From positions 142,187-186,566 of the forward strand of contig JAUYJS010000003.1 of assembly GCA_030698565.1 (NCBI GenBank): a stretch of DNA of 44,380 nucleotides, read 5' to 3'. The stretch comes from Candidatus Shapirobacteria bacterium. GTDB lineage: Bacteria; Patescibacteriota; Microgenomatia; UBA12405. Shown piece by piece: positions 15,024-44,380 of this stretch; positions within the stretch are counted from its first letter, which is position 1, and each line of letters starts with the position of its first letter. Under the pieces are notes generated by a model. The model searched no databases and was not told the origin of the DNA. It saw nothing but the letters and a program-made list of their open reading frames with translations. A program made the position numbers and the translations under genes.

Positions 15024-15025
15024 AT

Positions 15026-16163: not shown

Positions 16164-16198
16164 TAATTAATATTGTCGACAAATTTTTGGCGGAAAAA

Positions 16199-17665: not shown

Positions 17666-17673
17666 AAAACAAA

Positions 17674-18655: not shown

Positions 18656-19471
18656 ATATATCTATTTTTAATTTTATTTTCTCTAATTTTTCCCCAATCA
18701 TCATTTGCCCTAGATAAAGTTTCTTCCGCCAATATCACCGTCTCTGCCTCTATCGGAGAAAATCAAGTTACTATCACCGGTTTTACTTCCCCCCAATCTC
18801 GCGTCGAACTTAGTAGTCCCAAAACTTACGCGGTTACTTATAGTGACCCCACTGGCTTCTTTGAATTCGATCGAACTTTACTTCCCAAAGATCCTTCTGA
18901 TCTTTGTCTATCTTCTTTTGATGACTACAATCGTCAATCCACCCCCGTATGTATTCCACCACCCCCACCTACTAATTATCAAACCGACATCGGTCCAATT
19001 ATTTTGCCACCAACCATCGCTCTCAACGCAGCCACGATTCAACCCGGCAGCACTGTCGCCGCTTCAGGCCAAAGCTTACCCAATTCCCAAATCGAAATTT
19101 ATTTTTACAAAGTCGACGATAGTGCCTTGTCCTTTCCCAAAGCTGCCATGGCCTATTCTTTACCCATTCTAACTACAAAATCAGACCATCAAGGTAATTT
19201 TAATTTAAACTTACCCACGGCTTATTCGAGTAATTATCGTCTTTATGTTGCCACCAAATATCAGGATAATTTATCCCCCAAATCCAACACTCTGCTCTAT
19301 GTCATGCCTTCATTAATTTGGCTTTTTTGGTTAGAAAATAAAATATTAATTATTTTTTTGCCACTTTTTATTTTTACCCTTAGCTTTTTTATTTATCTTC
19401 TTGTCCAATATTCTTTACCCAAAAAACATTATCTCCCTGCGATACGAAATTTTTTACCGGCTGTTTGTTAA
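18656..19471 (+). CDS. Surface-operon protein P5, with no canonical start codon upstream of its signal peptide
   Basis: Hand translation of the frame open from 18650 gives IYLFLILFSLIFPQSSFALDKVSSANITVSAS..., continuous with track ORF 19004-19471. C-terminal TM present. The first ATG/GTG/TTG in frame is TTG 19004. Confidence 0.45.
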   Translation: MYLFLILFSLIFPQSSFALDKVSSANITVSASIGENQVTITGFTSPQSRVELSSPKTYAVTYSDPTGFFEFDRTLLPKDPSDLCLSSFDDYNRQSTPVCIPPPPPTNYQTDIGPIILPPTIALNAATIQPGSTVAASGQSLPNSQIEIYFYKVDDSALSFPKAAMAYSLPILTTKSDHQGNFNLNLPTAYSSNYRLYVATKYQDNLSPKSNTLLYVMPSLIWLFWLENKILIIFLPLFIFTLSFFIYLLVQYSLPKKHYLPAIRNFLPAVC

Positions 19472-19929: not shown

Positions 19930-20003
19930 GTAGGGGCGACCCTGGCGGTCGCCCCATTATTTGATCCATTATTATTCAGGGCGGGGGCTAGCCCCGCCCC
20001 TAC
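19930..20003. mobile_element. REPIN-like composite B+C (copy 2)
   Basis: GTAGGGGCGACCCTGGCGGTCGCCCC-ATTATTTGATCCATTATTATTC-AGGGCGGGGGCTAGCCCCGCCCCTAC. Confidence 0.8.
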
Positions 20004-20014
20004 AGAATCAAAAA

Positions 20015-26621: not shown

Positions 26622-26738
26622 ATGTTATCCTTTTTATACACACTTATGCCTCGTAATAAACCCACCACTAACATTAGATCCCCCTTTTTGAGGTCGTTAG
26701 ATCCTCGAAGAGGAGGGATTATAGGGGGTTTTAAATGA
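26622..26738 (+). CDS. 38-codon upstream ORF ending in an ATGA overlap with the G2 start
   Basis: MLSFLYTLMPRNKPTT... The first 11 codons are identical to the G1 N-terminal extension; AGGAGG lies about 18 nt upstream of ATG 26735. Confidence 0.3.
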   Translation: MLSFLYTLMPRNKPTTNIRSPFLRSLDPRRGGIIGGFK

Positions 26739-29700: not shown

Positions 29701-32035
29701 TGTAAATGGCATTATTCGCGGCACAGGGACCCATTCAGGGGCCAGTTGGAACAGTTATCCTCCTGGAGTTTCACCCAGCATTGGTGATCACCATTATTAT
29801 TCTAATTCAAAATTTTTTTCAGGGATCATCGACGATGTCAAAATTTATAACTACCCTCGCAACCAAAGACAAATTATCGAAGACATGAACGCCGGCCACC
29901 CTATTGGCGGCTCCCCGGTCGGTTCCCAACTAGCTTATTGGAAAATGGACGAAGGCTATGGATCAACCACCAACAATTCCGGCTTTGGAGGTTCTGTTTT
30001 AAATGGTACTTTTGGCACCGGCAACTCCGCCCCCACCTGGACTAATAATGGTAAGTTCAACAAAGCTTTAAGTTTCGATGGCGGGGATTATACAACCATT
30101 AGTGATAATCCTGCCCTCGATATAGGTTATTCGGGTAGCATTTCCATTTCAGTTTGGTACTACTCTACTACTGCTGATACTAATACCCATACTATTTTAG
30201 CCAAACGCCAAACCGACTCCAGCACTAATACAGATTATATATTATTTATTTCAAATAATTATTTAACCTGGGGGACAGGAGATTCAACTGATTCTGTCGC
30301 CTGGATGTCCATTACTGAGCCATCCAGAAACCAATGGCATCAGATAGTTGCTGTCTTGTCTCGTGATACCAGTCTAACAGGAACAAAATATTTATATGTT
30401 GATGGAAATTTAGTTTCTTCTGGAACTTATGCAACTAAAGCTAATGCAACCAGCACTCCATTATATATCGGTAAATATAATGGAAGTGGAGCTTTTTGGG
30501 AAGGCCTTATTGATGAAGTTAAAATTTACAACACAGCCTTAACTGCTGAAGATATCAAACTAGATTATAATCGAGGTTCTGCCATAGTTATGGGCAATTT
30601 AGGAACCAATTCATCAGGCGCTGTCGATGCTTCTTCAAATAGATCATACTGTATCCCCGGCGATACTTCGACCTGCAACCCCCCAGTCGGCGAATGGAAA
30701 TTTGAGGAAGGTGTGGGGACTACTGCTTATGATACCAGCGGCAATAATAATAATGGAATTTGGCAAGGCACACTTGGCAATCAATGGTCCCAAGGTAAAA
30801 TTGGTAAAGCCGGTAGTTTTAATGGCGCCAATAATTATATTTTAGGAACAAACAATTTAGGAATTTCCGGAAATGCAGAATTTACCATGTGTGCCTGGAT
30901 GAAATGGATCGGAATTTCATGGCCATCAGATTATCCATCATTTATGGGAAACAATTCAACCGGCTCTACCAATAACGGATTAAGTTTTACTGTTTATCAA
31001 GGCAGACCTGCAATTGATTTTTGGGTAAATCGTTGGCGAGCCTCAAACGCCTTATCTTTAAATACTTGGTATTATGTTTGTGGTACTAAAACAGCCGGAA
31101 CAATTTCAACCACATCAAAAATTTATGTAAATGGACAGCTAGTTTCAGGAGCAGTGGAAGGAACTGACACAACACCAAATATTACCGATTCACCTCCTGT
31201 AATAGGAAGGTTAGACGGAACACGTTGGTTTCAAGGTCTCATCGATCAAGCAGAATACTTTAACTACGCCCGCACACCAGCTCAAGTCGCCTGGGACTAC
31301 AACCGCGGTGGACCTGTGGGTCACTGGAAATTTGACGAATGCCAAGGATCTATAGTTTACGATTCTTCTGGTGTCGGCACCACTGGTGGTATATCAATTG
31401 GTACCTCTGGAACCCAAAATTCCCTTGGAACCTGTGCTGTTGGCACATCAGCAGCCTGGACCAATGGCGCTAGCGGTAAACTCAACTCATCGCTAAGTTT
31501 TGACGGAATCGACGACTATATAAACTTAGGAAACAATACCAACTTAAATCCTCAACAACACGGCTGGTCAACATCTTTCTGGGTTAAATCAAGTCAAAAG
31601 ACGAGTCAAAACGGTGGTTATGTTAGGGTTATGGGTAGAATTTCTGGAGGTGCTCCTTATTGGATATTGAGAACTCACACAAATAATGGAGATTATGCTG
31701 TTATGCAAATGTTAGATGCTAGTAGCAACAGTGGAGGTGTCAGCGGAACTAATACAGTTACTGATGGTGTTTGGCATCATCTTGTGTTCGTTTACGATTA
31801 TAATAATTCTAAGTCTTACATATATCTAGACGGAGTTAGGGATGGATATAACGACTGGACAGGAACAAGTATGGGTACTGTAAATCCGTCTCTTCCCCTA
31901 CATATAGGTCAGGCCAACGCTAATTCAGAATTCTTTTCCGGCCAAATTGATGATGTTCGTATTTATAATTACGCTCTCACCGCCACCCAAACCAAAACTC
32001 TTTACAATAATGGGGCTGTGAATTTTTCGAATTAA
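26735..32035 (+). CDS. Giant surface protein G2: TM anchor, DUF2341, canonical fibrinogen-related domain, six LamG domains
   Basis: Same architecture as G1. Fibrinogen-like motifs: SC..., YYVTPGG...IQVYCDM, TTTDADHDASGSNCANSYNYAWWYGSCWNGSFWG. Confidence 0.85.
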   Translation: MTRFSYKSLFIILFFLLIGIVALFKFYPQNKISAAWWNDGWGYRTRVDVTNSSGSDLSNQRIKITLNTSTLISTGKMQSDCDDIRVTSQSGKLLDHWVINCNSSSSSVYVKMEDLPSSGSNVFVYYGNPSVSNIENTLGSTNYPGTSCQMMRDQGSVTSDGLYYVTPGGNDDNKIQVYCDMTTDSSGWSLVLNHVSSSTPGPNPNWNQVVNNINTSGTYSSDLTSFSLFLGVKHWNYLGDYIRVEVGSSPTSITKRYDYTSFSLDTGNYYALTMSGETQITGTGSPGIYSYHNNRPLTTTDADHDASGSNCANSYNYAWWYGSCWNGSFWGSTVSHQDRAFWTGSTSDYHNYGGLWLKGDDSMENISTGTPATEEQSLAPIAYWKFDEGVGTTAYDSSSSALNGLISAATWQTEDQCMTGKCLYFNESTSYVSLGTNNTLTKNITNITISAWVKLGKDLGTVSDNYEIISNESYQNYGYLFRVENTTSTATAGKIHFRFSQAGASTNVTAQSNSFPNDHQWHYLVGTKNGTVGKIYLDGKEMTLSTNQSLSNPVDASGATQIGGISQRWNGFLDDVKVYPYARSATQIKQDYAAGKSHSSSTKGTSANLGSSNQNLSALTDGLIGYWKMDENVGTTTVDSSGNNNTATLGTGNSAPTWSPGKYGVGLSFNGTTNYIKVSYDASLKKPVSAITMGAWVKLNSTGGWQSVVQYPQQDGSHVSTYFDWAIYVGSGGGLHTRIDGESSGTYGTISWGEWTHVAIAWDGSSTLVKYYINGALVGTYDGTKTSIVYDNNNPVYFGQNAGGGEKLSGSLDEVRIYNRALSPSEVSQLYNWAPGPIGYWDFNENVGTTAYDKSGNNYSGSLGADNYSPTWDIGKYGSGLKFNGNQFVNLTRFANKGISVNLSNFTVSTFIKPTLINGNSKAIYVEGAGGSTGSSWAGIFLVNNEIRVHFKTYNTGDLILYDTVGANVTANNIYYITVTRTGNNFTTYVNGIIRGTGTHSGASWNSYPPGVSPSIGDHHYYSNSKFFSGIIDDVKIYNYPRNQRQIIEDMNAGHPIGGSPVGSQLAYWKMDEGYGSTTNNSGFGGSVLNGTFGTGNSAPTWTNNGKFNKALSFDGGDYTTISDNPALDIGYSGSISISVWYYSTTADTNTHTILAKRQTDSSTNTDYILFISNNYLTWGTGDSTDSVAWMSITEPSRNQWHQIVAVLSRDTSLTGTKYLYVDGNLVSSGTYATKANATSTPLYIGKYNGSGAFWEGLIDEVKIYNTALTAEDIKLDYNRGSAIVMGNLGTNSSGAVDASSNRSYCIPGDTSTCNPPVGEWKFEEGVGTTAYDTSGNNNNGIWQGTLGNQWSQGKIGKAGSFNGANNYILGTNNLGISGNAEFTMCAWMKWIGISWPSDYPSFMGNNSTGSTNNGLSFTVYQGRPAIDFWVNRWRASNALSLNTWYYVCGTKTAGTISTTSKIYVNGQLVSGAVEGTDTTPNITDSPPVIGRLDGTRWFQGLIDQAEYFNYARTPAQVAWDYNRGGPVGHWKFDECQGSIVYDSSGVGTTGGISIGTSGTQNSLGTCAVGTSAAWTNGASGKLNSSLSFDGIDDYINLGNNTNLNPQQHGWSTSFWVKSSQKTSQNGGYVRVMGRISGGAPYWILRTHTNNGDYAVMQMLDASSNSGGVSGTNTVTDGVWHHLVFVYDYNNSKSYIYLDGVRDGYNDWTGTSMGTVNPSLPLHIGQANANSEFFSGQIDDVRIYNYALTATQTKTLYNNGAVNFSN

Positions 32036-32325: not shown

Positions 32326-32847
32326 TTAATCTCGAATCATCTTTCTCTTTATCTCCACCACCCCAGTACAATTCCTCATCATTGCCCGACTTAATTTTTT
32401 CTCAAACCCAACATAAATTATTTTCTTTTTCACTACCTTTGCCTCCAATATTGCTGGAACAATATCTGTATCAGAAGAAATCAAATAACAAACATTATAC
32501 TCATTTTTTAAAGCTCCGGCGGTAATCTCCACCGCCATTTTTACGTCAACACCTTTTTCGTGATACTTACCGTCACTTTTCAACATAAAACCTTTATAAA
32601 CTTCAATTTTTTGTTGTTCTAAATTATAAAATAATGACTGTTGTTGAGCATACATTCCCTCTGCCTTTTTATTTCCAGATTCCCTCTTAATTTCTCCCAC
32701 ACAATATAATATTCTCATTCCTTTTTGCCCAACTACTTTTTCCACTAATTTTCGATAATTAAAATTTGTTAAATGAACTTCAGGACACAAATTTTTACTT
32801 CCATGATAAAAATTACTCCCATCTATTATTACCAATAATTTATCCAT
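32326..32847 (-). CDS. NYN-domain (LabA/DUF88-like, PIN-related) predicted RNase
   Basis: LVIIDGSNFYH..., EKGVDVKMAVEI, YLISSDTDIVPAI. ATG 32847 is preferred over the track's GTG 32862. Confidence 0.7.
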   Translation of the reverse strand: MDKLLVIIDGSNFYHGSKNLCPEVHLTNFNYRKLVEKVVGQKGMRILYCVGEIKRESGNKKAEGMYAQQQSLFYNLEQQKIEVYKGFMLKSDGKYHEKGVDVKMAVEITAGALKNEYNVCYLISSDTDIVPAILEAKVVKKKIIYVGFEKKLSRAMMRNCTGVVEIKRKMIRD

Positions 32848-32868
32848 AGTTAAATTTACCACAAAGCC

Positions 32869-32984: not shown

Positions 32985-33169
32985 ATAGAGACGCATACAA
33001 TGCGTCTCTATAAAACACAACATATCCAATGTAGGGGCGATTCATGAATCGCCCCTACCAAACGTAAACATTATATTTAATTCCACCCATTCTGTAGGGG
33101 CGACCCTGGCGGTCGCCCCATTTTGTTTAATTCATTTTTATTCAGGGCGGGGGCCAGCCCCGCCCCTAC
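32985..33169. repeat. Hairpin array E, A, B+C; a direct repeat of 32053-32236
   Basis: E-variant 32985-33011, A 33031-33058, B+C 33094-33169. The inter-hairpin spacers are also conserved (AAAACACAACATATCCAAT; CAAACGTAAACATTATATTTAATTCC). Confidence 0.85.
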
Positions 33170-33190
33170 CAAAAACCACATCTTAATTTT

Positions 33191-33208
33191 ATGTAATAAT
33201 AATTACAT
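33191..33208 (+). promoter_or_regulatory. Operator-like palindrome ATGTAAT-N4-ATTACAT overlapping the toxin start codon
   Basis: The same motif sits immediately upstream of the decayed toxin start (26528-26545). Confidence 0.4.
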
Positions 33209-33521
33209 GGAAACATTTTTTATTAACCCAGATTTAAGAGAATATATTTATTCATTGGATAAAGCGACATTATCAAAATTCATTAGATTATCTGATCTGT
33301 TAGAAACATATGGAGAAAAATTGGGCATGCCATATTCAAAAAAAATTCAGAAGAATCTTTATGAATTAAGAATCCATGGTCAACGCGAAATCCGCGTATT
33401 TTATTGTTTCTATCGAGACAAAACTGTTTTTGTCCACGCAATTATTAAAAAATCCAGAAAAACACCAACTCAAGACATAAAAACAGCAATGATAAGAATT
33501 AAACAATTAACAAACATATAA
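33207..33521 (+). CDS. Intact Gp49/HigB-type toxin (RelE/ParE superfamily)
   Basis: 104 aa; LYELRIHGQREIRVFYCFYRDKTVFVHAIIKKSRKTP is typical of phage Gp49-like (DUF891) toxins. The track start at 33123 lies inside hairpin C. Confidence 0.7.
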   Translation: METFFINPDLREYIYSLDKATLSKFIRLSDLLETYGEKLGMPYSKKIQKNLYELRIHGQREIRVFYCFYRDKTVFVHAIIKKSRKTPTQDIKTAMIRIKQLTNI

Positions 33522-33536
33522 CATATATGTTATAAT
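33517..33536 (+). promoter_or_regulatory. 18-bp perfect palindrome TATAACATATATGTTATA overlapping an extended -10 (TGTTATAAT), 7 nt before the antitoxin ATG
   Basis: Read directly; the spacing implies a leaderless or near-leaderless antitoxin transcript. Confidence 0.35.
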
Positions 33537-33542
33537 AAGCTT

Positions 33543-33839
33543 ATGAAAATTTCAAATAAAATAAATCTCGTCCCTTTTTCTGAATTCAAAAAGAAAGCTC
33601 TTATGGATCCTGAAATCAAAGCCGAATATGATCGGCTTGGGCCAGAATACGAAATCATCGAAGCAATTATTCGTAAACGACTTGAAATTGGTATTTCCCA
33701 AAAACAATTAGCCGAAAAAATGGGCACCAAACAATCAGCTCTCTCCCGTCTGGAATCCGGTAACTACAATCCATCTCTCGCATTTCTAAAAAAAGTTGCC
33801 GCCGCCCTCGACGCCAAGCTAAGTATCTCAATGAAATAA
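33543..33839 (+). CDS. XRE-family HTH antitoxin (HigA-like) of the intact module
   Basis: ISQKQLAEKMGTKQSALSRLESGNYNPSLAFLKKVAAALDAKLSISMK. Confidence 0.75.
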   Translation: MKISNKINLVPFSEFKKKALMDPEIKAEYDRLGPEYEIIEAIIRKRLEIGISQKQLAEKMGTKQSALSRLESGNYNPSLAFLKKVAAALDAKLSISMK

Positions 33840-33853: not shown

Positions 33854-34181
33854 GTAGGCGCAGACCTTTGTGTCTCTGCCCAAACAACAAATTTTTCAAA
33901 TTAAAATTAATATTATCCAACGTAGAGACGCGCTGCAGCGCGTCTCTTTATTTAAAATAAATATTTTATTGTTTATGAGAGACGCATACAATGCGTCTCT
34001 ACAAAAAAATCCCACCCATTTTTAATTTATTTTTTAATGAACAGACACAAGGGTCTGTTCCTACAAATATTATTTTCCGATTTATTAATACGCCATTGCG
34101 AGGAGGCTTTGCGACGACCTGCCTGCCGGCAGGCAGGAGCAATCCCATTGTCTGTAGAGACGCGCTGCAGCGCGTCTCTAC
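33854..34181. repeat. Hairpin array: D-like, E (with T-tract), E, D, long F, E
   Basis: 33854-33880, 33922-33947, 33977-34002, 34039-34064, 34093-34148 (contains the nested CCTGCCTGCCGGCAGGCAGG), 34154-34181. Confidence 0.85.
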
Positions 34182-34404
34182 AAAATATCAAATTTTATTC
34201 CCCTATCCCATAATCTTATCTTCTAATTTTCTCCAAAATAGCTCAAAAATAAGAATAATCTTTGAATTCCCCCAACTTCCAGTTTACATTCGCCCAACCT
34301 CGTCATTGGCAACCGCCAACATAGATTGCCAACATTTCTCAGAAAACTAATTACAACTACATCACAAACTCTCTTTGAAGTTCAAACAGCCATCCAACCC
34401 ATAA

Positions 34405-34830
34405 TTATTTTTTTCTAAACGTCACCGTTAATTTATTATTTAAAAATGCTCCATTAACACTCGCCTCAAGTTCAAATTGCCTCGCTTCTATTGAAGTCAT
34501 CGTAAAAGTCGCTTTACCCAAGTTATCACTCACACTACTTGCCGGACTCACAGTATTTATACCATTCAAACTCACTGTCTTGCCCGAAATTCCCTTGCCA
34601 CTTCTATCAACCACAAAAACATTAACAACGCATTTGTCTTCCCCATCGGCCACGGCCAAAATTTTTGACCCAATTAAAAGAGATTTACTTAAATCAACCT
34701 TACCCACAGTCGATGCCCGAGTAAAAGTTACTAAGGACTTGGGAATTAGTTGCCAGGCAAAAAAATAAACCAAAACCAACCCCACTATCAACCCAGTCAA
34801 ACTGACTATAAATTGCTTATTAACTTTCAT
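34405..34830 (-). CDS. Small membrane-anchored Big_1-like protein, inverted paralogue of 19500-19916
   Basis: TM, then ADGEDKCVVNVFVVDRSGKGISGKTVSL...SDNLGKATFTMTS. Confidence 0.55.
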   Translation of the reverse strand: MKVNKQFIVSLTGLIVGLVLVYFFAWQLIPKSLVTFTRASTVGKVDLSKSLLIGSKILAVADGEDKCVVNVFVVDRSGKGISGKTVSLNGINTVSPASSVSDNLGKATFTMTSIEARQFELEASVNGAFLNNKLTVTFRKK

Positions 34831-35038
34831 ATCTACTATAATTAAAAGAATATCACAAATTAGTAAAGCAAGTATTTGATACTACTGTATATCTCACTAA
34901 ATTTTATATAAAATCTAGTTAATTGTCAGTTAAACAATCCATTGCTAGTAAAAAATAAGGCCACTTTATCCCTATATTCTTGCCTTAATTAACATTAATC
35001 CATCATCATAAAATCCATTTAATTTAAAATTATAAATA

Positions 35039-35065
35039 TAGGGCGTCCTGGCGGGACGCCCCTAC
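35039..35065. repeat. B-like hairpin TAGGGCGTCC-TGGC-GGGACGCCCCTAC
   Basis: Solitary copy in an AT-rich spacer. Confidence 0.7.
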
Positions 35066-35324
35066 ATTAAATTTTCAAATTTTAACCACAATCTACGTCT
35101 TTAATTATCTTTATATATCAGACTAAAACCTATTAGGTGTTTATCAATCAAACAAATCTGTCAATAAAATAGGCAAAAAAAAACCATATCAAAATACTAC
35201 CTATTCTTTGGCCTTACTATAATTGCACCAACCTGTTTTCATTGCTAATATTTAAACATTTTAATATTTAGACTATGTTTACAGAATAATTATTATTTAT
35301 GATATGAAACATCCCTGTCTTGCT

Positions 35325-35353
35325 GTACGGGCGCCCTGGCGGGGCGCCCCTAC
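35325..35353. repeat. B-like hairpin GTACGGGCGCCCTGGCGGGGCGCCCCTAC
   Basis: Solitary copy in an AT-rich spacer. Confidence 0.7.
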
Positions 35354-35661
35354 ATAAACATTTTTTCCAACCAGCATGAATTTCCCTATCAATTAATATC
35401 ATACTGCATTTTCCGTGCATATCCGAAATTACTTTAATTTTTAATCTTATTAATTAGATATTTAGACTTTAATAGATATAGATCGATAGTAGCTATACAC
35501 ACCGTGCAAGCCCTTGTGAAATTATTAATTCTTAATTATTAATTATTAATTGGCCAAAATCATACTATCAAAATATATCAAAAACTCCATCAAACCGCCT
35601 GTTGACAGCCTTTTTCTTATAGTAGATAAATTATATATATACTAATTAATTTTATATAAAC

Positions 35662-35778
35662 ATGTATAAAAAATATAAAAATAAACCTAAAACTTTATCT
35701 TTGCACTTAAATGCACTAGCAGAAAGACTCGTGCCATTTCTTATCATCGCCACCGCTTTTATGTGGTTGTGGAAATAA
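35662..35778 (+). CDS. Possible 38-aa single-TM micro-protein
   Basis: MYKKYKNKPKTLSLHLNALAERLVPFLIIATAFMWLWK; ends 4 nt before ATG 35783. No homology support. Confidence 0.25.
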   Translation: MYKKYKNKPKTLSLHLNALAERLVPFLIIATAFMWLWK

Positions 35779-35782
35779 CACC

Positions 35783-36295
35783 ATGGACACTGCTCTAAAC
35801 ACCACACTAGAACCATTCAGACTTTGGTTACAAAATAAAAACCTATCTTCATCAACTGTTCGCAATTATGTAGTCGACGTTAATAAATATCTAAAATTTA
35901 TTGACAACAAATACGGACAGCTCGCCAAACAATCCCATCTTCAGTACGGACAGGTCGCGACCTGTCCCTACACAGAATCAAATCTCGAGCAATATATCTC
36001 CTCCATTTCCTCCGACCCCAACAACTCTCGCTATTTAGCTTCCCTAAATAAGTTTTGCCAATTCGCCCTAGATCAAAAACTAATCAAATCAAATCCAATA
36101 AAAAAAATTCTCCATCGTCGTAAAAGTGATTCACAACCTGTCCTAAATACAGAAAACTTAATTTCCCAATATCAAAAACACCTGATTCACAAAAATTTCT
36201 CCCAAAACACTATAAAAAACTATATCAATGACATACACCAGTTTATAAATTGGGCAGAAAAAAACAATCGCCCTGTTAAGGGAGATGTCACGTAG
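35783..36295 (+). CDS. Protein made of two tyrosine-recombinase N-terminal SAM-like (core-binding) modules, with no catalytic domain
   Basis: FRLWLQNKNLSSSTVRNYVVDVNKYLKFI and YQKHLIHKNFSQNTIKNYINDIHQFINW match the Phage_integrase N-terminal SAM-like pattern. Ends at TAG TGA, in the same frame as the next ORF. Confidence 0.6.
   Translation: MDTALNTTLEPFRLWLQNKNLSSSTVRNYVVDVNKYLKFIDNKYGQLAKQSHLQYGQVATCPYTESNLEQYISSISSDPNNSRYLASLNKFCQFALDQKLIKSNPIKKILHRRKSDSQPVLNTENLISQYQKHLIHKNFSQNTIKNYINDIHQFINWAEKNNRPVKGDVT
35944..35971. repeat. Family G palindrome GTACGGACAGGTCGCGACCTGTCCCTAC, in-frame in CDS 35783-36295
   Basis: 28 nt with one arm mismatch; translated YGQVATCPY. Confidence 0.75.
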
Positions 36296-36300
36296 TGACA
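36286..36300. repeat. Small palindrome TGTCAC-GTA-GTGACA carrying tandem in-frame stops TAG TGA
   Basis: Stops at 36293-36298 separate two ORFs that share one reading frame. Confidence 0.7.
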
Positions 36301-36313
36301 GAGGGTTTGTTCA

Positions 36314-39300
36314 ATGAATTTAAAATTTAACCAATCGCAATTCGACCAATATGCGGCTTTTCTAAAAAGCACCGATGCTTCTCCAGCCTCAATTCAAAGA
36401 AAGCTATCCTCCCTCGCTTCTTTCCAAAAATTTTTAATCAAAAAGAAATATATTTCTCCTCCTGTACGGGCGATTCATGAATCGCCCGTACATTCCATTA
36501 CCTCAAAAAAATTTTTCATCCCTTTTTCAAAATATCTTATTATAGCTAGTTTAATCATTATTGCCTCTGGTCTTCTTTATGGCCTTTATACCCAAACCAT
36601 ACTCAAAGCTCAAAAGAACTTAGCTTATTCCACCATTGCCAGTCCAGCTCGACCAGGCCGCTCCTTGTCATTTCAAGGACGACTGACCGATTCTTCAGGT
36701 AATCCAATAAGTTCATCGACCGGTATTATTTTTAGGCTTTACGATACAGCCGCTGTCGGCACAGGCACTTCTCTTTATTCTTCTGACATTGGCAACTCTC
36801 AAACAGTAACACCGGACGAAAACGGAATTTTTTCAGTGGTTATTGGCACCACTCACGGCACCGAAATTTCCGAATCTGTTTTTTCCGAGAACACTGCTGT
36901 GTATTTAGAAATTACCGCCGGCAGTGAAACCATGTCTCCTCGTCAACAAATTGCCACTGTCGCCTATGCTCTGAACGCAGAAACATTACAGGGACTGCCT
37001 CCCTCTGCTAGCGGTCTAAAAGATACTGTCATGGTGATCGACGCTCTTGGTAATTTAAATTTAGGCGAAACTTCCCCTACTATCAAATCTGTCTCAGGTA
37101 CTTTTGCCATTGAAGGTCAAAGCCTACTTCTAAAAGCTTCTGATGGTTCTGGCGGTAACATCGAAATCAATCCCGATGCCGCCGGTATTATTAAACTCAC
37201 CACCGAAGGGGTTGGTACCACAGTTCAAGGCTTTATTTCTGCCACCAACGCCAACTTAACCACGGGTAATTTATACGAAGGCGTCATCAACAATACCAAT
37301 CGCAATTACAACTTTTTAGAATTCAAAAATTACGATGTCGGTACCAGCACTATTGCTTCTCGTTTTACTGTTACAGCCGGGGGTAATGTTACTGCAGGTG
37401 GAAATCTTTCGGTGGGCATTGGCATTACCTCTCCTAAAATTACTCTCACCACTGGTGCTAACAATGGCTATCTACTCCAATCTGATGCCAATGGCACTGC
37501 TTCCTGGGTTTCCGCTTCTGGCATTGGTGGTACCTACACCGCGGGTAACGGTTTGACCCTTTCTGGTTCTCAATTCAAATTAGGCGGAGCCTTAACCGAA
37601 GCCACTAGACTAAATATTGGTTCAACTGAAGTCATGTATCTCTCCACCGCTGGCAATGTTGGCATCGGTGTTACCAATCCTATTGAAAAACTTCACATCA
37701 CAGGCAACATCCTCCAATCAAAATCATCTGATTCTGCTGGTGGTGCTGGTATTTATTTAGGAAGTGATACTGGAAGAAACTGGGGTCTAAGGAAAAGCAC
37801 TACCGGCAATAATTTTAATATCGATTACTATAACAGTTCTTGGAACACAGCTCTTTCAATTCTAAATTCAAATGGCAATATCGGCATCGGTACCACCAAC
37901 CCTCTTTCCAAACTCTACATTTCTGATGTTGGTTTCACTGGTAATTTCTTAACCATCAACGACGGATCTTCCGATCTTGTCAATATCTCTTCTGTCCAAT
38001 CTACTTTCAACAATCCAACTTCCTTCACCTCTGCTGGTGATGTATCAATTGCTTATGACTTAAATTTCACCAACCCCACAGCCTCTTATATCAAATCTTC
38101 TGCACCCATCTACCTTCAATCTGGCGAATCTTTCAATTCTTCTGATTTAATTCTTAGGACTTTTAATGCTGGCGACATTGTCCTCGATGCCGCCGGCGGA
38201 GTCACCCTAGCCCAAGCCCAAAACTGGAATTTGGCCACTTCCACCACCGCCCTAAATGTTCAATCCGGTTTATTAAATTTAGATACAACAAACGGTCGGG
38301 TTGGCATTGGCACTACTAGTCCTGAAGCCGCCCTAGATATCAAAAATGTTTTGACTTTAGACAAAACTGGTTCAGCTAGTGTGATTTTAAATGCTACTGC
38401 CGGAGGATGGTTCTATTTCCAACGTGCCGGAAATAATGAGTTAACTATTAACAATTTAGGCAATGTCGGTATTGGTACTGCCAATCCTCTTTACAAACTC
38501 GAAGTTAATGGTTCTCTTCTTGCCACTACCATTGGTGCTGGTGCTACTGACCCTAATTATTCTTTGTATACCAATGGCAAGTTTGGTGTCGGTTCTACCG
38601 CTTACTTTGCTTCTTATGTGGGTATTGGGACGACGAGTCCAGGTGCAAAGTTAGAAATCAATTCAGCAGCGAATGGATCAGGATATGGATTGAAAATAAA
38701 CACAAATACCAGAACTACAGGCGAGGGGTATATTTGGTTAGGTGACGCCACTACACCTGATTTTTATATAAATACAACTGGCAACGTCGGCATCGGCACC
38801 ACCAACCCCACCCACCTTTTACAAGTCAGCAAGACCACCACTGGAGACGATTATGGCATCAAGGTTATTACCGATGGTGTTTCTTATGATACTGGCATTC
38901 TCATCGGCCGATCCGCTGTCAATGGTGCCGGCATCCGAATGGTCACCGGCACTACCGATTATTTAGGCTTTATGGTCAGCGGTTCTACTTTGCCGGCCTT
39001 CACCACCACTGCCCAAATGGTTCTTAATGAAAGTGGCAATGTGGGTATAGGTACCACCAATCCTGGTTACAAACTCGAAGTTAATGGTTCTCTTTTAGCT
39101 ACCACCATTGGTGCTGGTGCCACTGATCCTAATTATTCTCTTTACACTAATAGTAAATTTGGTGTCGGTTCTACCGCTTACTTTGCTTCTTATGTGGGGA
39201 TTGGGACTACAGGACCAACCGAAAAACTCGATGTGAGCGGTTCTGTCAACGCAACAGATATTAAGATAAGTACTCAATCTCTAGATGCAAGATACAAGAA

Positions 39301-42300
39301 TTTAGATGTTGTAAAATCTCAGATTAGTGAGATAACTGGCACTGGCTATAGTACTAATTATGGCACTAGTTTTGGATATCCTGATTGGGGAAATCTCAGT
39401 TCACTTTTACCAAATGGTACGGTTATATCTTATGGTGGTCGCGGTAAAGTTAGTCAAGTAGGTGACAGAGTTATAATGTTCGTTTATAGAGATGATTGGA
39501 GCTGGTCCTCGTCTGTGTATCTTAGCGATGATGGTCAGACAAGTTATGGAACTTTTCGTTATACTACGGCAACAGTGGGAGGAAATGCCGGCTCACCTCT
39601 CTATGCTGGAGTTTGGAATCAACCCGAAGACGGTAATTATGGCACAATATATGCCAAAGATATAATTTTAGTTAAAGAAAGAGTGGCTTTTGGTAGCAGT
39701 TTTGAGCCTAATACTACATTTATGGTTGGCAACGTCGGCATCGGCACCACCAACCCTACCTCTAAACTGCATGTAGTTGGTAATGGTAATATCACTACCA
39801 ATTTATCTGTTGGTGGTACTCTCACCTTTACTGGTGTTAATGTGGGTACTGGTACTACTGCTCTCTTTGTTGATGGTTCAGATATTGTGACTAAAAGAGC
39901 TTTAGGTGATTTAGCTTTCCTCAATAATACTTCTTTAGGCTGGGTAGCTTTTGGTTCTGCCGCTCAAACTGTTGCTACTGGTACCACCCTTTCCTTTACT
40001 GGCACCAACGGTTTAACCACTACTTCAGTTGGTACAACTCAAATTACTTTTGGTCTAGGTGGTACTTTAACTGCCAACACTTCCATTGGCACTTCTTCTT
40101 TTTCTTTGTCTTTTTTGGGCTTGGGTAATACTCAGTCACTCTATATTGCTTCCAGTGGCAATGTCGGCATCGGGACAACTAATCCAGTAACCAAATTAGA
40201 CATTGTTGGTGGTATACGAATGACTGCTAATAATTCCATACAATTTGGTTCTACTTCCACCTCCATTATTTCAGACGATGGCGGAGATAAAATAAAACTC
40301 AGTGGCTATTCAGGACTAACTTTTTATTCAGCCGTAAATACTGCCGACCATATTTTTACCAACAACCAAACGGGGGAATTGATGAGAATTAAAGGCACTG
40401 GCCTTGTCGGCATTGGTACCACAAATCCTCTTTACACCCTTCAAGTTGGTGGTACCGGCACACTCGGAATCGGTGGTACCGCTTACTTTGCTTCGTATGT
40501 CGGCATCGGGACGACAGGGCCTAGTCAAAAATTGGAAGTGGCAGGAAGTATAGTCATTGCAAAAGATAGTGCTTATCGTTCAAATGATGCTTCCGGCAAT
40601 GACAGATGGCTGATGGGTGTTGCCGGTGCTTCAGGAAGTGAATACACCCAATTTTCTATACCGTCAACTGGTGGGTATCTAAGGTTCACTGACTTAAATG
40701 CTAATGAGTTAGTACGAATTACAACAGCGGGCTCCGTCGGCATCGGTACCACCAATCCTCTTTTCAAACTTGATGTCAATGGCAATGCTAATATTGCCAC
40801 TAATTTAAATGTTGGTGTTGGTCTCACCTCTCCCAAAATTACTCTAACCACTGGTGCTAACAATGGTTATCTACTACAATCTGATGCAAATGGCACTGCC
40901 ACTTGGGTTTCGGCTTCTGGTATTGGTGGCACCTACACTGCCACTAATGGTTTAACCAAGACTGGCTCAGCTTTTGGTCTCGGTGGCACTTTAACCCAAA
41001 ACACTTCCATTGGCACTTCTTCTTTTTCTTTGTCTTTTTTGGGCTTGGGTAATACTCAGTCACTCTATATTGCTTCCAGTGGGAATGTGGGCATCGGTAC
41101 GACTAATCCGGGGGCGAAGTTGGAAGTATCGGGAGCAACAACATTACGGGGAGGAGATTTGCTTGTTGGTGGTGCGGGATGGGATTTGTTAAGAGTGGAT
41201 GTTACGGGAACAGACGAAGGGACTCATATTCTCACCAGAGGACTAACTATTGGAAATGCTTATACAAGCATAGAACCAGCTGATGGTGTTTTATTAGTAA
41301 GTGGCAACCTCGGCATCGCTACCACCAACCCCACCAATCTTCTCCAGGTAAATACTGACACTGCCGGCAAAGGATTCCTTCTCTATGATGATGTTAGTGG
41401 CCGGAATATTGCTTCTCTTACTCGAGGCAGCAGCAGTAATGATCCTGGAATGTTACAACTCTACAATGCTGGCTCTGAAACAATCAGATTTAATGGTGAA
41501 TCTGGAACAACCTCATGGATAAATAATGGCGGCCTAGTCGGCATTGGGACAACAGCCCCAAAATACAAACTCGAAGTTTCCGGTTCTCTTCTTGCTACCA
41601 CCATTGGTGCTGGTGCCACTGATCCTAATTATTCTCTTTACACTAACGGTAAATTTGGTGTTGGTTCTACTGCTTACTTTGCTTCTTATGTGGGGATTGG
41701 GACTACTAATCCAACCCAAAAACTGGACTTGGTGGGTTCTATGAAGTTGGAGAATACTACTACATCAACTACGGGAGTAATCTACAAAGGAACAGACAGG
41801 TTCATCCATAACTTCCAACATCCTACAGGAGGCGGAGCGGTACCAGATGGATATAACACATTTGTTGGAGTAAACTCAGGTAACTTCACCATGGGGTCTA
41901 GCGCTACGGTGGCTTCTCACGGCTCCAGGAACTCTGCTCTGGGTCAGGGTACCCTCCAATTAAACACCACCGGTTACCAAAACTCTGTTGTGGGTGCGAG
42001 TGCCCTCAATTCCAACACCACAGGTTACAGCAACTCTGCTCTGGGTGTGAGTGCCCTCCAAATTAACAACACCGGTTACCAAAACTCTGCTGTGGGTACG
42101 CTTGCCCTCTATTCCAATACCACAGGTTACAGTAACTCTGCCCTGGGTGTAAATGCAGGCAGATATATAACAGGTAATGCAGCCAACGAAACTTCTAATA
42201 CCTCCTTGTATCTAGGAACATCAACTAAAGCTCTGGCAGACGGAGGAAGTAATGAAATTGTAATTGGTTACAATACCACAGGTTTTGGTTCTAACTCCGC

Positions 42301-44380
42301 CGCTTATGGCAACAGCAGTATCACAAAGCACATATTCCAAGCAGGCTCTGTCGGCATTGGCACCACCAACCCCACCTCCAAACTTCATGTTGTTGGTAAT
42401 GGTAATATCACTACTAATTTAACTGTTGGTGGTACTCTCACTTTTACTGGTGTTAATGTGGGTACTGGTACTACTGCTCTCTTTGTTGATGGTTCAGGTA
42501 TTGTGACTAAAAGAGCTTTGGGTGATCTTGCTTTCCAAGATACCACTGATTTAGGCTGGGTGGCTTTTGGCTCTTCAGCTCAAACTGTTGGCATTGGTAC
42601 CACTCAATACTTTACTGGTATTAATGGTTTGACTACTACTTCAGTTGGTACAACTCAAATTACTTTTAAATTAGGTGGAGCCCTGACCGAAGCTACTAGA
42701 CTTAATATTGGCTCGACTGAAGTTATGTATTTTTCCACTGCTGGCAATGTTGGGATTGGAACCACAGGGCCAGATCAAAAGTTAGTTGTAAATGGCGGAT
42801 TAGTTAAGTCAACAAATGTGGGCACACTGGGATTTGTTGCAGATTATACCGGAGGAAAAGCAGCCGCCCTAACTGCCGGAACTTTACGAGCAGCTTTTTT
42901 GTACGATGATTCTGGTTCATTTTCAATTCAAAAAACTCCAAGAGCGAGTGTTTTAACAGGTACAGCAAATGCATCAAACAGTGTCTTTGAAATAGACTCT
43001 TCCGGCAACGTCGGCATTGGCACCACCAATCCAGGCACCAAATTAGATATACTTCAAATTGGCAATACTAATCAATTTAGAACATACACTACAGGCAATA
43101 CCATTGCAGCTCGTACCTATTCCACGACTGATGGATTCGGATTAATTATAAATTCATATCAATCACAAACTGGTGGTGCTCCTTATTTAAGAACCAACGA
43201 TATCGTCGCTTCTACTGGAGATGCATCAGGATCGCAACTCAGGTTTTTTACGAAACCAGCAAGTGGAAATCCAGCAGCAAATATGGTGATAGACAAAGAT
43301 GGCAATGTCGGCATCGGCACCACCGCCCCAATTGCTACCACCTGGGACGTTCCTCAGGCCGCAGCAACATCAATAAAATTGGATCTAAGTGGAGGAAGTT
43401 ATCACGTTACCAATAGCGGTGGACTCTATATTGGAGATGAAGCAACAAATGATATCGGAGGAGCTCATTTTAGCTATGATCAGACCCTAAATAATATTTA
43501 CATCTATGGAATTAAACAGGGTGTTGCAGCTGCAAATACTATATTCCGATCTGGCAACATCGGCATCGGTACCACCAATCCCCTTTATCAACTTCACACC
43601 ACTGGTGTAGCTTTGATTGGTACTAAGCTTGGGATTGGAGCAACGTCAGCTTCTACTTTTAATGTTGTTGGTAATGGTAATATCACTACCTCTTTGTCTG
43701 TTGGTACTTCCCTATCTGTCACTGGTAATGCCTCTATTGGTGGGACTGCTTCAGCTCCTGTATTTTCTGCTTCTTCTCGCTTTTTAACTGCTAATGGTAC
43801 TGTTTCTGTTCCTTCTTACTCCTTTACCAATAGTCTTAATACTGGTCTCTACTTACCTTCTACTGCTGTCTTAGCTATTGGTACTTCTGGGGTGGAGAGA
43901 TTAAGGATTAGTGCTAATGGCAATGTCGGGATTGGGACGACGGGACCTATTTCACTACTTCATGTTTATCAAAATAATGCTGATGTGGGTGTCAGCTCTG
44001 GAATAACTATTGAACAAGACGGTACAGGTGCTTCTATACTTCAATTTTTATTAACAGGAAATTATAGATATACAATGGGTGTTGGTACTAGTGCTAGTGG
44101 TGCTAAATTTCAAATTGGAAGAGGAATTGGTTGGGCAACAGGAATCGATATTACACTTGATCATTCAGGCAACGTCGGCATCGGCACCACCAACCCTACC
44201 TACAAACTTCATATTGTTGGTAATGGTAATATCACTACCAATCTTTCTGTCGGTGGCACTCTCACCTTTACTGGGGTTAATGTGGGTACTGGTACTACTG
44301 CTCTCTTTGTTGATGGTTCAGGTATTGTGACTAAAAGAGCTTTGGGTGATTTAGCTTTTCAAGATACCACTGATTTAGGC
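36314..44380 (+). CDS. Giant membrane-anchored fibre protein, 3'-partial (>2689 codons): SAM-like module, TM helix, about 20 GNVGIGTTNP..KL tail-fibre-type repeats, one YadA/Hep_Hag-like repeat block
   Basis: Hand translation from ATG 36314 stays open with the motif in frame at every point checked, including 37654, 38459, 39728, 41303 and 44168. No ORF of 60 aa or more in this frame appears in the track, as expected if ORFs lacking a stop inside the window were omitted. TM is YLIIASLIIIASGLLYGLY. Confidence 0.8.
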   Translation, partial: MNLKFNQSQFDQYAAFLKSTDASPASIQRKLSSLASFQKFLIKKKYISPPVRAIHESPVHSITSKKFFIPFSKYLIIASLIIIASGLLYGLYTQTILKAQKNLAYSTIASPARPGRSLSFQGRLTDSSGNPISSSTGIIFRLYDTAAVGTGTSLYSSDIGNSQTVTPDENGIFSVVIGTTHGTEISESVFSENTAVYLEITAGSETMSPRQQIATVAYALNAETLQGLPPSASGLKDTVMVIDALGNLNLGETSPTIKSVSGTFAIEGQSLLLKASDGSGGNIEINPDAAGIIKLTTEGVGTTVQGFISATNANLTTGNLYEGVINNTNRNYNFLEFKNYDVGTSTIASRFTVTAGGNVTAGGNLSVGIGITSPKITLTTGANNGYLLQSDANGTASWVSASGIGGTYTAGNGLTLSGSQFKLGGALTEATRLNIGSTEVMYLSTAGNVGIGVTNPIEKLHITGNILQSKSSDSAGGAGIYLGSDTGRNWGLRKSTTGNNFNIDYYNSSWNTALSILNSNGNIGIGTTNPLSKLYISDVGFTGNFLTINDGSSDLVNISSVQSTFNNPTSFTSAGDVSIAYDLNFTNPTASYIKSSAPIYLQSGESFNSSDLILRTFNAGDIVLDAAGGVTLAQAQNWNLATSTTALNVQSGLLNLDTTNGRVGIGTTSPEAALDIKNVLTLDKTGSASVILNATAGGWFYFQRAGNNELTINNLGNVGIGTANPLYKLEVNGSLLATTIGAGATDPNYSLYTNGKFGVGSTAYFASYVGIGTTSPGAKLEINSAANGSGYGLKINTNTRTTGEGYIWLGDATTPDFYINTTGNVGIGTTNPTHLLQVSKTTTGDDYGIKVITDGVSYDTGILIGRSAVNGAGIRMVTGTTDYLGFMVSGSTLPAFTTTAQMVLNESGNVGIGTTNPGYKLEVNGSLLATTIGAGATDPNYSLYTNSKFGVGSTAYFASYVGIGTTGPTEKLDVSGSVNATDIKISTQSLDARYKNLDVVKSQISEITGTGYSTNYGTSFGYPDWGNLSSLLPNGTVISYGGRGKVSQVGDRVIMFVYRDDWSWSSSVYLSDDGQTSYGTFRYTTATVGGNAGSPLYAGVWNQPEDGNYGTIYAKDIILVKERVAFGSSFEPNTTFMVGNVGIGTTNPTSKLHVVGNGNITTNLSVGGTLTFTGVNVGTGTTALFVDGSDIVTKRALGDLAFLNNTSLGWVAFGSAAQTVATGTTLSFTGTNGLTTTSVGTTQITFGLGGTLTANTSIGTSSFSLSFLGLGNTQSLYIASSGNVGIGTTNPVTKLDIVGGIRMTANNSIQFGSTSTSIISDDGGDKIKLSGYSGLTFYSAVNTADHIFTNNQTGELMRIKGTGLVGIGTTNPLYTLQVGGTGTLGIGGTAYFASYVGIGTTGPSQKLEVAGSIVIAKDSAYRSNDASGNDRWLMGVAGASGSEYTQFSIPSTGGYLRFTDLNANELVRITTAGSVGIGTTNPLFKLDVNGNANIATNLNVGVGLTSPKITLTTGANNGYLLQSDANGTATWVSASGIGGTYTATNGLTKTGSAFGLGGTLTQNTSIGTSSFSLSFLGLGNTQSLYIASSGNVGIGTTNPGAKLEVSGATTLRGGDLLVGGAGWDLLRVDVTGTDEGTHILTRGLTIGNAYTSIEPADGVLLVSGNLGIATTNPTNLLQVNTDTAGKGFLLYDDVSGRNIASLTRGSSSNDPGMLQLYNAGSETIRFNGESGTTSWINNGGLVGIGTTAPKYKLEVSGSLLATTIGAGATDPNYSLYTNGKFGVGSTAYFASYVGIGTTNPTQKLDLVGSMKLENTTTSTTGVIYKGTDRFIHNFQHPTGGGAVPDGYNTFVGVNSGNFTMGSSATVASHGSRNSALGQGTLQLNTTGYQNSVVGASALNSNTTGYSNSALGVSALQINNTGYQNSAVGTLALYSNTTGYSNSALGVNAGRYITGNAANETSNTSLYLGTSTKALADGGSNEIVIGYNTTGFGSNSAAYGNSSITKHIFQAGSVGIGTTNPTSKLHVVGNGNITTNLTVGGTLTFTGVNVGTGTTALFVDGSGIVTKRALGDLAFQDTTDLGWVAFGSSAQTVGIGTTQYFTGINGLTTTSVGTTQITFKLGGALTEATRLNIGSTEVMYFSTAGNVGIGTTGPDQKLVVNGGLVKSTNVGTLGFVADYTGGKAAALTAGTLRAAFLYDDSGSFSIQKTPRASVLTGTANASNSVFEIDSSGNVGIGTTNPGTKLDILQIGNTNQFRTYTTGNTIAARTYSTTDGFGLIINSYQSQTGGAPYLRTNDIVASTGDASGSQLRFFTKPASGNPAANMVIDKDGNVGIGTTAPIATTWDVPQAAATSIKLDLSGGSYHVTNSGGLYIGDEATNDIGGAHFSYDQTLNNIYIYGIKQGVAAANTIFRSGNIGIGTTNPLYQLHTTGVALIGTKLGIGATSASTFNVVGNGNITTSLSVGTSLSVTGNASIGGTASAPVFSASSRFLTANGTVSVPSYSFTNSLNTGLYLPSTAVLAIGTSGVERLRISANGNVGIGTTGPISLLHVYQNNADVGVSSGITIEQDGTGASILQFLLTGNYRYTMGVGTSASGAKFQIGRGIGWATGIDITLDHSGNVGIGTTNPTYKLHIVGNGNITTNLSVGGTLTFTGVNVGTGTTALFVDGSGIVTKRALGDLAFQDTTDLG
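36464..36491. repeat. Family A palindrome variant GTACGGGCGATTCATGAATCGCCCGTAC, in-frame in the giant ORF
   Basis: Translated VRAIHESPVH between the SAM-like module and the TM helix. Both arms carry compensatory changes, so the stem is preserved. Confidence 0.85.
37428..37675 (+). repeat. Intragenic repeat blocks reused at 40826-41105 and 42668-42765
   Basis: SPKITLTTGANNGYLLQSDANGTA.WVSASGIGGTYTA.NGLT recurs at 40826. KLGGALTEATRLNIGSTEVMY.STAGNVGIG recurs at 42668. The SSFSLSFLGLGNTQSLYIASSGNVGIG block occurs at 40066-40180 and 40990-41105. Confidence 0.75.
38492..38636 (+). repeat. About 145-nt intragenic repeat; copies at 39068-39210 and 41564-41708, partial copy near 40437-40520
   Basis: YKLEVNGSLLATTIGAGATDPNYSLYTN.KFGVGSTAYFASYVGIGTT, with high nucleotide identity. 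Confidence 0.8.
39728..40063 (+). repeat. About 335-nt intragenic super-repeat; further copies at 42344-42678 and 44168-44380 (cut by the window end)
   Basis: Near-identical DNA encoding GNVGIGTTNPTSKLHVVGNGNITTNL.VGGTLTFTGVNVGTGTTALFVDGS.IVTKRALGDLAF. Confidence 0.8.
41900..42330 (+). repeat. Degenerate 14-15-aa tandem repeats of YadA-head/Hep_Hag style within the giant ORF
   Basis: NSALGQGTLQLNTTGYQNSVVGASALNSNTTGYSNSALGVSALQINNTGYQNSAVGTLALYSNTTGYSNSALG. Confidence 0.6.

Follow-up and report, generated by a model that had tools for sequence, protein, structure and literature searches.

A giant open-ended gene of a Candidatus Shapirobacteria bacterium likely encodes the N-terminal part of a membrane-anchored fibre resembling phage tail fibres and MAT fibres

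Our analysis of a 44,380-nucleotide (nt) stretch of a Candidatus Shapirobacteria contig (JAUYJS010000003.1; this stretch at its full length is called the window) centred on a giant gene that starts with an ATG at position 36314 of the forward strand and is still open at the last base. The gene likely encodes the N-terminal part of a huge surface fibre of a Patescibacteria cell, which resembles phage fibres and the MAT fibres of Bdellovibrio, is anchored in the membrane and plausibly serves in contact with another cell or surface. The gene and its parts are as follows.

36314-44380 (+): giant fibre gene, 2,689 codons, 3'-end beyond the window, family of 449 matches at E <= 1e-10
36533-36604 (+): single transmembrane (TM) helix, amino acids (aa) 74-97, the sole Kyte-Doolittle peak above 1.6 in 2,689 residues
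36611-37033 (+): conserved membrane-proximal domain, aa 100-240, with a predicted beta-sandwich core at aa ~111-215
37031-37651 (+): second of the conserved proximal regions, aa 240-446, with the first GYLLQSDANGTASW module at 37466-37507
37652-44380 (+): shaft, modules delimited by 20 GNVGIGTTNP..KL.V and 4 YVGIGTT motifs at a spacing of 55-271 aa
39239-39721 (+): near-orphan insert within the shaft, aa ~976-1136
41855-42337 (+): block of 17-residue repeats, aa 1848-2008, N-T-T-G-x-x-N-[ST]-A-x-G-x-x-[AS]-L-x-x
44166-44380 (+): third copy of a 215-nt cassette, 92% identical to 42342-42556, a copy which is itself 89% identical to 39726-39940; the window ends inside this third copy

Translation of the giant frame revealed no stop in 2,689 codons, a run with a probability of ~1e-66 under the base composition of the region, and each of the remaining five frames contained 126-231 stops across 36314-44380. 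The original prediction, which was made by eye from the sequence, had described a frame open to the last base of the window; this was confirmed, and no in-frame stop had been missed. The nearest in-frame stops 5' of the ATG are TAG at 36293-36295 and TGA at 36296-36298. The composition by codon position, with a G-rich first position and a GC skew of -0.50 at the third, is that of the other plus strand genes of the window. The open-ended frame is a genuine coding gene. Its absence from the list of open reading frames (ORFs) had been ascribed to the lack of a stop inside the window, and the listing program indeed drops ORFs that run off the end. Listed for this region were just 39637-39924 (-), 40573-40863 (-) and 44079-44330 (+); these lie in other frames and are regarded as by-products of the long frame. 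An alternative genetic code was also rejected: the housekeeping ORFs examined are unbroken under translation table 11, and both TAG and TGA occur upstream of the giant's start.

The shaft contains 20 units of the type G-x-V-G-I-G-T-T-x-P and 4 YVGIGTT variants, in agreement with the approximately 20 GNVGIGTTNP..KL units predicted, and at the DNA level a 19-copy family was found. Several duplicated cassettes of 150-300 nt share 78-92% identity. Two PHROG tail-fibre profiles, 9942 and 18345, matched the protein at E-values of 3.2e-52 (8 stretches) and 3.3e-35 (6 stretches), and segments of tail fibres or spikes of cyanophages, a Flavobacterium-phage and a Pelagibacter-phage shared 25-38% identity with it. 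In a phmmer search against the PDB, the only solved-structure sequences matched were the MAT fibre Bd2133 (8ond_A, E 4.3e-9, three aligned stretches) and 8ojn_C (E 6e-4). Here the GNVGIGTTNP motifs align onto the segments GNLGLGTAAPTSALHV, GLVGINTAAPLQKLHV and GNVGIGATAPTAKLEV of Bd2133. MAT fibres, described in 2024 in Bdellovibrio, are located on the predator surface and consist of intertwined trimeric beta-helices with capping loops at the edges (consensus V-G-G/N-pi-x-x-P-x-x-x-L); they end in an S74 chaperone or in varied adhesive tips, and one of them binds prey glycans (PMC10769870). Since the repeats resemble the MAT capping loops and align with Bd2133, they are read as capping-loop-type motifs at module edges, and the shaft as a series of ~24 beta-helix-type modules. 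The family is mosaic, because the same modules sit at differing positions across relatives.

Apart from one hydrophobic segment (residues ~66-97) around the core helix at 74-97, no further such segment was found in the protein, which supports the single TM helix of the original prediction. Cysteines are absent, and the N-terminus consists of a 73-aa stub directly followed by the helix, without a signal peptide. We infer that the helix is a signal anchor with the N-terminus inside and the C-terminus outside. A TM segment followed by an FQGRL motif 20-80 aa further on is found in 78 of 120 relatives. The best conserved part of the giant is the domain at aa 100-240, with 73-79% identity in the best-matching relatives and matches in 90 of the 120, located just past the TM helix in those listed. 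For the second proximal region the identity is 50-62% in the best-matching relatives, with matches in 85 of the 120. An AlphaFold2 model based on 25 homologues folds the core at aa ~111-215 into a beta-sandwich with a predicted local distance difference test score (pLDDT) of ~90. Foldseek returned generic Ig-like, prealbumin-like, Big-1 and phage minor-tail matches for this model (best E 2.6e-4), and a profile search of PDB sequences gave only an insignificant CBM3 match (E 0.34). In phage genomes, tblastn found no match to the proximal 340 aa. A Zixibacteria protein carries a FQGRLTD-type proximal domain straight after a signal peptide, a layout reminiscent of MATs, in which the signal peptide precedes a ~130-aa beta-rich domain that is conserved (PMC10769870). 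A search seeded from this diderm N-terminal domain recovered 14 small unnamed proteins and none from Bdellovibrio.

The GYLLQSDANGTA.W motif, which had been put forward as typical of phage tail-fibre-like proteins, is indeed present in two copies (aa 385-398 and 1518-1531). The phage attribution did not hold: no such module was found in phage genomes at E <= 1e-3, and it is common to S74-terminated cellular proteins of Bacteroidota. The GYLLQSDANGTASW module, for example, is shared with an 833-aa S74-terminated protein of Winogradskyella (L010).

The 449 relatives or clusters, which were obtained in one search, make up a large, uncharacterised family and measure 1,500-4,700 aa. Many carry a C-terminal Peptidase_S74 and an N-terminal Phage_int_SAM_1 domain and are named 'tail fiber domain-containing protein' or 'site-specific integrase'. 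Two full-length relatives are syntenic with our gene: P0004 has 3,895 aa and an S74 domain with SDQRLK at residue 3379, and P0001 has 4,620 aa and a Peptidase_G2 domain. Based on their lengths, ~1,200-1,900 residues including the chaperone and the tip are probably absent from the window, which would hold the N-terminal ~60-70%. An exact 40-mer from 43970-44009, with which a 3' extension was sought, had no match in genome contigs or metagenome contigs. A 3.8-kb Logan contig (L001) found with the small upstream ORF described below also stops within the giant gene, and the contigs of 5 of the 7 loci most closely related end no more than a few kb from the giant's start. Assemblies from short reads evidently break up at genes of this family, which are therefore under-counted.

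The prediction of a membrane-anchored, tail-fibre-like giant is thus supported by the PHROG matches, the MAT homology, the similarity to phage fibres, the S74 domains of relatives and the single TM helix. Among known systems, the MAT fibres Bd2133 (8ond), Bd1334 and Bd3182 (Caulton et al. 2024, PMC10769870) share with it direct sequence matches and the capping-loop-type motif, a conserved cell-proximal domain, beta-rich in the model of the giant, a shuffled mosaic order and, in the relatives of the giant, S74 ends; moreover, Bdellovibrio lives on other bacteria. In contrast, the full-length relatives are approximately four times longer (3,900-4,600 aa versus ~1,000; 417-1,915 aa in Table S3 of that study, which includes examples from other phyla), a TM helix with a cytoplasmic SAM-like stub takes the place of the MAT signal peptide, and a split partner gene is present. 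Phage fibres and tailspikes with a C-terminal Peptidase_S74, such as the K1F endosialidase and the L-shaped fibre of T5, are similar in the PHROG matches and in the SDxxxK motif of S74, which is found in relatives of our protein. The window gene differs from them in being cellular, membrane-anchored and far longer, and neither its proximal 340 aa nor the insert has a phage match. The 'tail fiber domain-containing' proteins of Bacteroidota and other diderms resemble the fibre family in the GY[VL]LT[ST]DANGTASW module, in motifs of the capping-loop type and in an S74 terminus, whereas they comprise only 300-850 aa, possess signal peptides and lack a cytoplasmic domain.

In phage fibres, a terminal chaperone domain drives folding of the trimer and is then cut off. 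For the giant, the cytoplasmic stub and the TM helix would act as signal anchor for export of the other 2,590 or more residues, and the conserved beta-sandwich of ~105-140 aa would be placed beside membrane and cell wall. The ~24 beta-helix-type modules with their capping-loop-type motifs would form an intertwined homotrimeric shaft, its trimerisation being assumed by homology, and the chain would end in a self-cleaving intramolecular chaperone of the Peptidase_S74 or G2 type, as in the syntenic full-length relatives. The published dimensions of MAT pieces (135 aa over 60 Å, 922 aa over ~550 Å and 370 aa over ~145 Å; PMC10769870) correspond to 0.4-0.6 Å per residue, at which the 2,590 extracellular residues present would extend over ~100-155 nm. 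If extended like phage and MAT fibres, the fibre would have a length of the order of the cell diameter.

Contact with another cell or surface is our best guess for the role of the fibre, because its characterised relatives are recognition devices and every cultivated member of the Patescibacteria is reportedly an obligate episymbiont (PMC12206443). That it is the major contact fibre of the cell, as originally proposed, cannot be claimed, since two more giant surface proteins are encoded in the window and no binding tip is visible in the truncated gene. Rather unlikely is a function other than partner or host contact, for instance as an envelope or glycocalyx-like spacer, in aggregation or surface attachment, or as a decoy or shield against phages. 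The lack of a visible tip or binding domain is consistent with such a function, as are the very large size of the family and the presence in the locus of lectin-like giants with six LamG or with fibrinogen_C domains, which could be the real binders; furthermore, adhesion by giant CPR (Candidate Phyla Radiation) surface proteins is only inferred in the literature (PMC13059738). However, recognition is the task of the characterised phage fibres, spikes and MATs, including the MAT that binds prey glycans (PMC10769870), and the shuffling of modules between relatives is more in keeping with diversifying recognition than with a structural spacer.

The cytoplasmic foot of the fibre is divided between two genes:

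35783-36295 (+): small ORF of 170 aa, a complete recombinase-type SAM-like domain and the first half of a second
36293-36313 (+): gene junction, tandem in-frame TAG TGA at 36293-36298, Shine-Dalgarno-like AGAGGG at 36300-36305, 8-nt spacer, followed by ATG at 36314
36335-36448 (+): second half of SAM-like domain 2, aa 8-45 of the giant, PF02899 profile positions 46-83 of 83 at E 0.0014

The original prediction of a cytoplasmic SAM-like module thus stands as far as the match is concerned, but only half a domain is encoded by the giant gene, where it is presumably cytoplasmic, and the first half resides in the upstream ORF. Domain 1 of the small ORF spans aa 17-99 (nt 35831-36079; PF02899 profile positions 10-83 of 83, 7.9e-13), and the half-domain 2 spans aa 123-161 (nt 36149-36265; PF13495 profile positions 1-36 at aa 126-160), so that the Pfam half-profiles of domain 2 flank the junction on opposite sides. 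In the alignment with the fused homologues P0071, P0059 and L008, the small ORF occupies the first ~185 columns colinearly, and the giant continues from the second half of domain 2; this domain is followed by the TM helix and then by LSFQGRLTD. The small ORF lacks a TM segment, and a recombinase catalytic domain is absent from both it and the giant. Pfam likewise gave no Phage_integrase catalytic match, all families above the curated cut-off being SAM-like N-terminal ones. NCBIfam scores were 50.2 bits for XerC and 49.9 for XerD against cut-offs of 335 and 330, and covered N-terminal profile positions only. The 'integrase' label of database relatives is a misannotation. The XerC/XerD tyrosine recombinases have in common with the locus the SAM-like core-binding domain, which the small ORF matches at E 8e-13; in contrast to theirs, the domain here lacks a catalytic part and is either joined to a TM-anchored fibre or separated from it by the split.

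Every one of the 8 relatives examined (L002-L007, L015 and L016) shows the split with an adjoining small ORF. In each of them the two genes overlap by 11-23 nt, and the giant is shifted to the +1 frame with respect to the small ORF; in the window both share one reading frame. In several relatives a stop just 1-2 codons before the giant's start closes its frame. The giants of L005 and L006 possess only CTG or ATT and no ATG, GTG or TTG at the conserved N-terminus; the arrangement in the 8 relatives could reflect termination-reinitiation coupling or +1 frameshifting. Standalone homologues of the small ORF number 47 (133-215 aa, mostly named 'recombinase XerD'), and the split is kept across many assemblies at 35-78% protein identity. 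A single fused ORF occurs in more distant relatives (L008, P0059, P0060 and P0071). Among the 120 relatives the TM helix is located at position 41-140, i.e. after a short stub, in 58 and at 236-340 in 18, and the three examined of these 18 (P0059, P0060 and P0071) have two complete SAM-like domains before it. We read the split as an old gene fission within a four-helix domain. The junction sequence also occurs in the Logan assembly of SRR26726065, a run that may derive from the same source as the window; its contig L001 is an exact substring of the window (34156-37984).

Synthesis of small ORF and giant as one polypeptide, by +1 frameshifting in the relatives and stop bypass here, or a recent inactivating split of a fused gene, is improbable. 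Both variants could draw on the distant relatives whose fused ORF places two complete SAM-like domains ahead of the TM helix, on the +1 overlaps and the two giants lacking a usual start codon, and on the common frame of the two window ORFs. Nevertheless, two consecutive stops are followed by AGAGGG and by an ATG where the homologues start. A recent pseudogene is not expected to show conservation of the split at such divergence or 47 standalone small proteins, and the stops directly before the giant's start in several relatives leave scant room for a frameshift.

Encoded by two separate genes, the SAM-like halves of the giant and of the 170-aa protein may reassemble non-covalently, in which case each fibre chain would have one small protein docked at its cytoplasmic foot. 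More speculative, and with a low probability in our estimation, is a two-piece adaptor in which the 170-aa protein completes the four-helix bundle and, by means of its own intact SAM-like domain of the DNA-binding type, connects the fibre with DNA or some other partner in the cytoplasm. Such an adaptor would turn the fibre into a transmembrane tether or signalling device rather than a passive adhesin and might couple host contact to DNA uptake in competence-dependent episymbionts.

A scan of 34300-36700 for promoters and terminators scored no better than shuffled sequences. A single-copy palindrome, GGACAGGTCGCGACCTGTCC, is located in frame within the small SAM-like ORF (35948-35967), and a 7-nt tandem repeat (AATTATT, 4.6 copies, 35520-35551) lies ~230 nt 5' of this ORF in an AT-rich intergenic region of 950 nt.

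Several points weigh against the interpretation of the giant as a MAT-like contact fibre. Its trimerisation, length and binding function are deduced from homology, and the C-terminal domain and tip would lie beyond the window. Identity to the solved MAT pieces is low and confined to motif-rich segments, the TM anchor differs from the MAT signal peptide, and the proximal domain may not be homologous to the N-terminal domain of MATs. Reassembly of the split domain is hypothetical, and the stub could be a vestige. In L005 and L006, which lack a canonical start, and given the +1 frame in all 8 relatives, recoding into one polypeptide is possible. Finally, the 78-92% identity of the cassettes makes in-frame errors of copy number in the assembly possible.

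The best named relatives of the giant belong to Candidatus Shapirobacteria and other Microgenomates, and the N-terminal 420 aa share 55-60% identity with contigs of metagenome-assembled Shapirobacteria genomes. Two other TM-anchored giants of 1,778 and 1,766 aa are encoded at 19961-25297 and 26735-32035 (+), each carrying six Laminin_G_3 domains alongside DUF2341, and in addition domains of the pentaxin-like or fibrinogen_C kind. A 735-kb Shapirobacteria contig has the same gene order, namely LamG giant, Gp49-HTH pair, Big_1 (opposite strand), small SAM-like ORF and giant fibre, and a reduced version was found on a 355-kb contig. Since a LamG giant also lies 5' of the fibre in both full-length relatives, the locus is a conserved surface-protein island. 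By eye, translations of window ORFs resemble MurB, MreB, LeuRS, ComEA and a two-piece ComEC, and genes for tRNA-Pro(CGG) and tRNA-Arg(CCT) lie side by side at 5325-5484 (+); beyond these two tRNAs, no Rfam family was detected in the window. The strands are extremely asymmetric: nearly all plus strand genes have a GC skew of approximately -0.5 at codon position 3 (range -0.30 to -0.66), and for minus strand genes it is without exception +0.4 to +0.8. Because of the housekeeping-like neighbours, the tRNAs, the matching position-3 skew and the shared chromosomal synteny, the giant is a native chromosomal gene of the Patescibacteria cell and not part of a prophage. A phage or prophage tail-fibre gene lying in the contig, as the PHROG matches and the similarity to the three kinds of phages might suggest, is very improbable. 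The window ORFs scanned or read, which leave out several smaller ones, include no gene for a capsid, portal, terminase or tail tube and none for an integrase catalytic domain. The N-terminal TM anchor with its cytoplasmic domain, a synonymous-site strand bias identical to that of the housekeeping neighbours, synteny on two large relative contigs and a proximal part unmatched in phages also argue against a phage origin.

Two further segments of the shaft had been singled out before. The insert at about 39240-39720 was considered unique and globular. It is indeed nearly an orphan: its core (aa ~980-1135; query aa 969-1141) is without a counterpart in the 120 best family members and in phage genomes, and among 1.84 billion representative proteins a single match was found, a 288-aa TM protein (P0121, E 7e-6, 41% identity over 98 aa). 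The other segment, the block of 17-residue repeats, contains a 51/102-nt tandem array at 41926-42150 (TRF), occurs in 43 of 120 relatives and shares 34-38% identity with segments of phage tail spikes and fibres. AlphaFold2 predicted a beta-solenoid, modelled regularly with two short strands per repeat at a moderate pLDDT of 62.9. Its description as YadA-head-like was not upheld. The Pfam family YadA_head (PF05658) had no match in the window block at E <= 5, and of 16 homologous blocks it matched a single one (E 0.0097); a fragment of SadA was the best PDB hit of the block profile at E 0.061; and Foldseek returned generic solenoids and a few phage tailspikes, none significant (best E 0.26), with no head of YadA or another trimeric autotransporter adhesin. 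A YadA-type trimeric autotransporter adhesin is thus hardly credible despite the N-x-A-x-G repeats reminiscent of the YadA head, the SadA hit and a precomputed YadA_head match of P0007, as the anchor within the window is an N-terminal TM helix rather than a C-terminal outer-membrane barrel and the full-length relatives carry an S74 or G2 chaperone, not a YadA anchor, at their C-terminus.

Host recognition and attachment by ultrasmall Patescibacteria are largely open, and the experiments in the retrieved literature centre on type IV pili. Within the library searched, no paper on S74 or MAT-type fibres or on SAM-like membrane anchors of Patescibacteria was found, and the list of MAT-bearing taxa contains no Patescibacteria (PMC10769870). 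Giant surface proteins of Absconditicoccaceae with more than 1,500 aa, a TM segment or signal peptide and adhesion-type domains have been described as candidates for host recognition (PMC13059738). These resemble the two LamG/fibrinogen giants of the window; in contrast to the present locus, neither tail-fibre/S74 fibres nor SAM-like anchors appear in that paper. The fibre family is already present in databases under automatic names, and for a specialist the split cytoplasmic domain is the unexpected part. In a Shapirobacteria-like lineage, a conserved surface-protein island is maintained that centres on a fibre of ~4,000 residues, which shares parts with phage fibres and with the prey-recognition fibres of Bdellovibrio, and the conserved fission within a small helical domain provides a clean natural case of a split domain.

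Additional observations concern the surroundings of the fibre gene. At 33123-33839 (+) and 32326-32862 (-), a Gp49-like (DUF891) gene and an HTH_3 gene, a pair typical of toxin-antitoxin systems, are adjoined by an NYN-domain gene, and the pair recurs at the P0004 locus. Four consecutive ORFs of 258-492 aa at 14247-18654 (+) have N-terminal hydrophobic segments and are rich in Ser and Thr, as in secreted or surface proteins. ComEC apparently is encoded by two overlapping ORFs, one for the membrane 'competence' part and one for the metallo-beta-lactamase part (11355-12146 and 12136-13005, -), and a ComEA-like ORF follows at 13002-13559; all three were assigned by eye. The ORF at 5238-5510 (-) overlaps the two tRNAs and is probably spurious. 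The intergenic GC skew ranges from -0.16 to -0.44, the plus strand being strongly G-poor across the 44 kb. A link to a diversity-generating retroelement was considered for L015, where a bAvd / 23S_rRNA_IVP gene (18923-19282, -) lies 1.2 kb 3' of the fibre; it was rejected, the neighbours being TPR/Wzy_C-like and no reverse transcriptase being seen.

A dispersed palindrome also enters the fibre gene:

36464-36491 (no strand): 28-nt perfect palindrome GTACGGGCGATTCATGAATCGCCCGTAC, in frame in the cytoplasmic linker, where it encodes VRAIHESPV

Its 20-nt core GGGCGATTCATGAATCGCCC, usually inside GTAGGGGCGATTCATGAATCGCCCCTAC, occurs 9 times in the window (at 9421, 9553, 13194, 15903, 25417, 26587, 32104, 33035 and 36468), with 0 copies expected. 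Five copies are in frame and add the peptide (G/R)AIHESP(L/V) to their host proteins, twice in LeuRS and once each in ComEA, at the end of ORF 15026-15931 and in the fibre linker. It is a REP- or RPE-like element tolerated by proteins. At the matching position of the linker, L003 carries VETHDRASL, which perhaps represents another such element.

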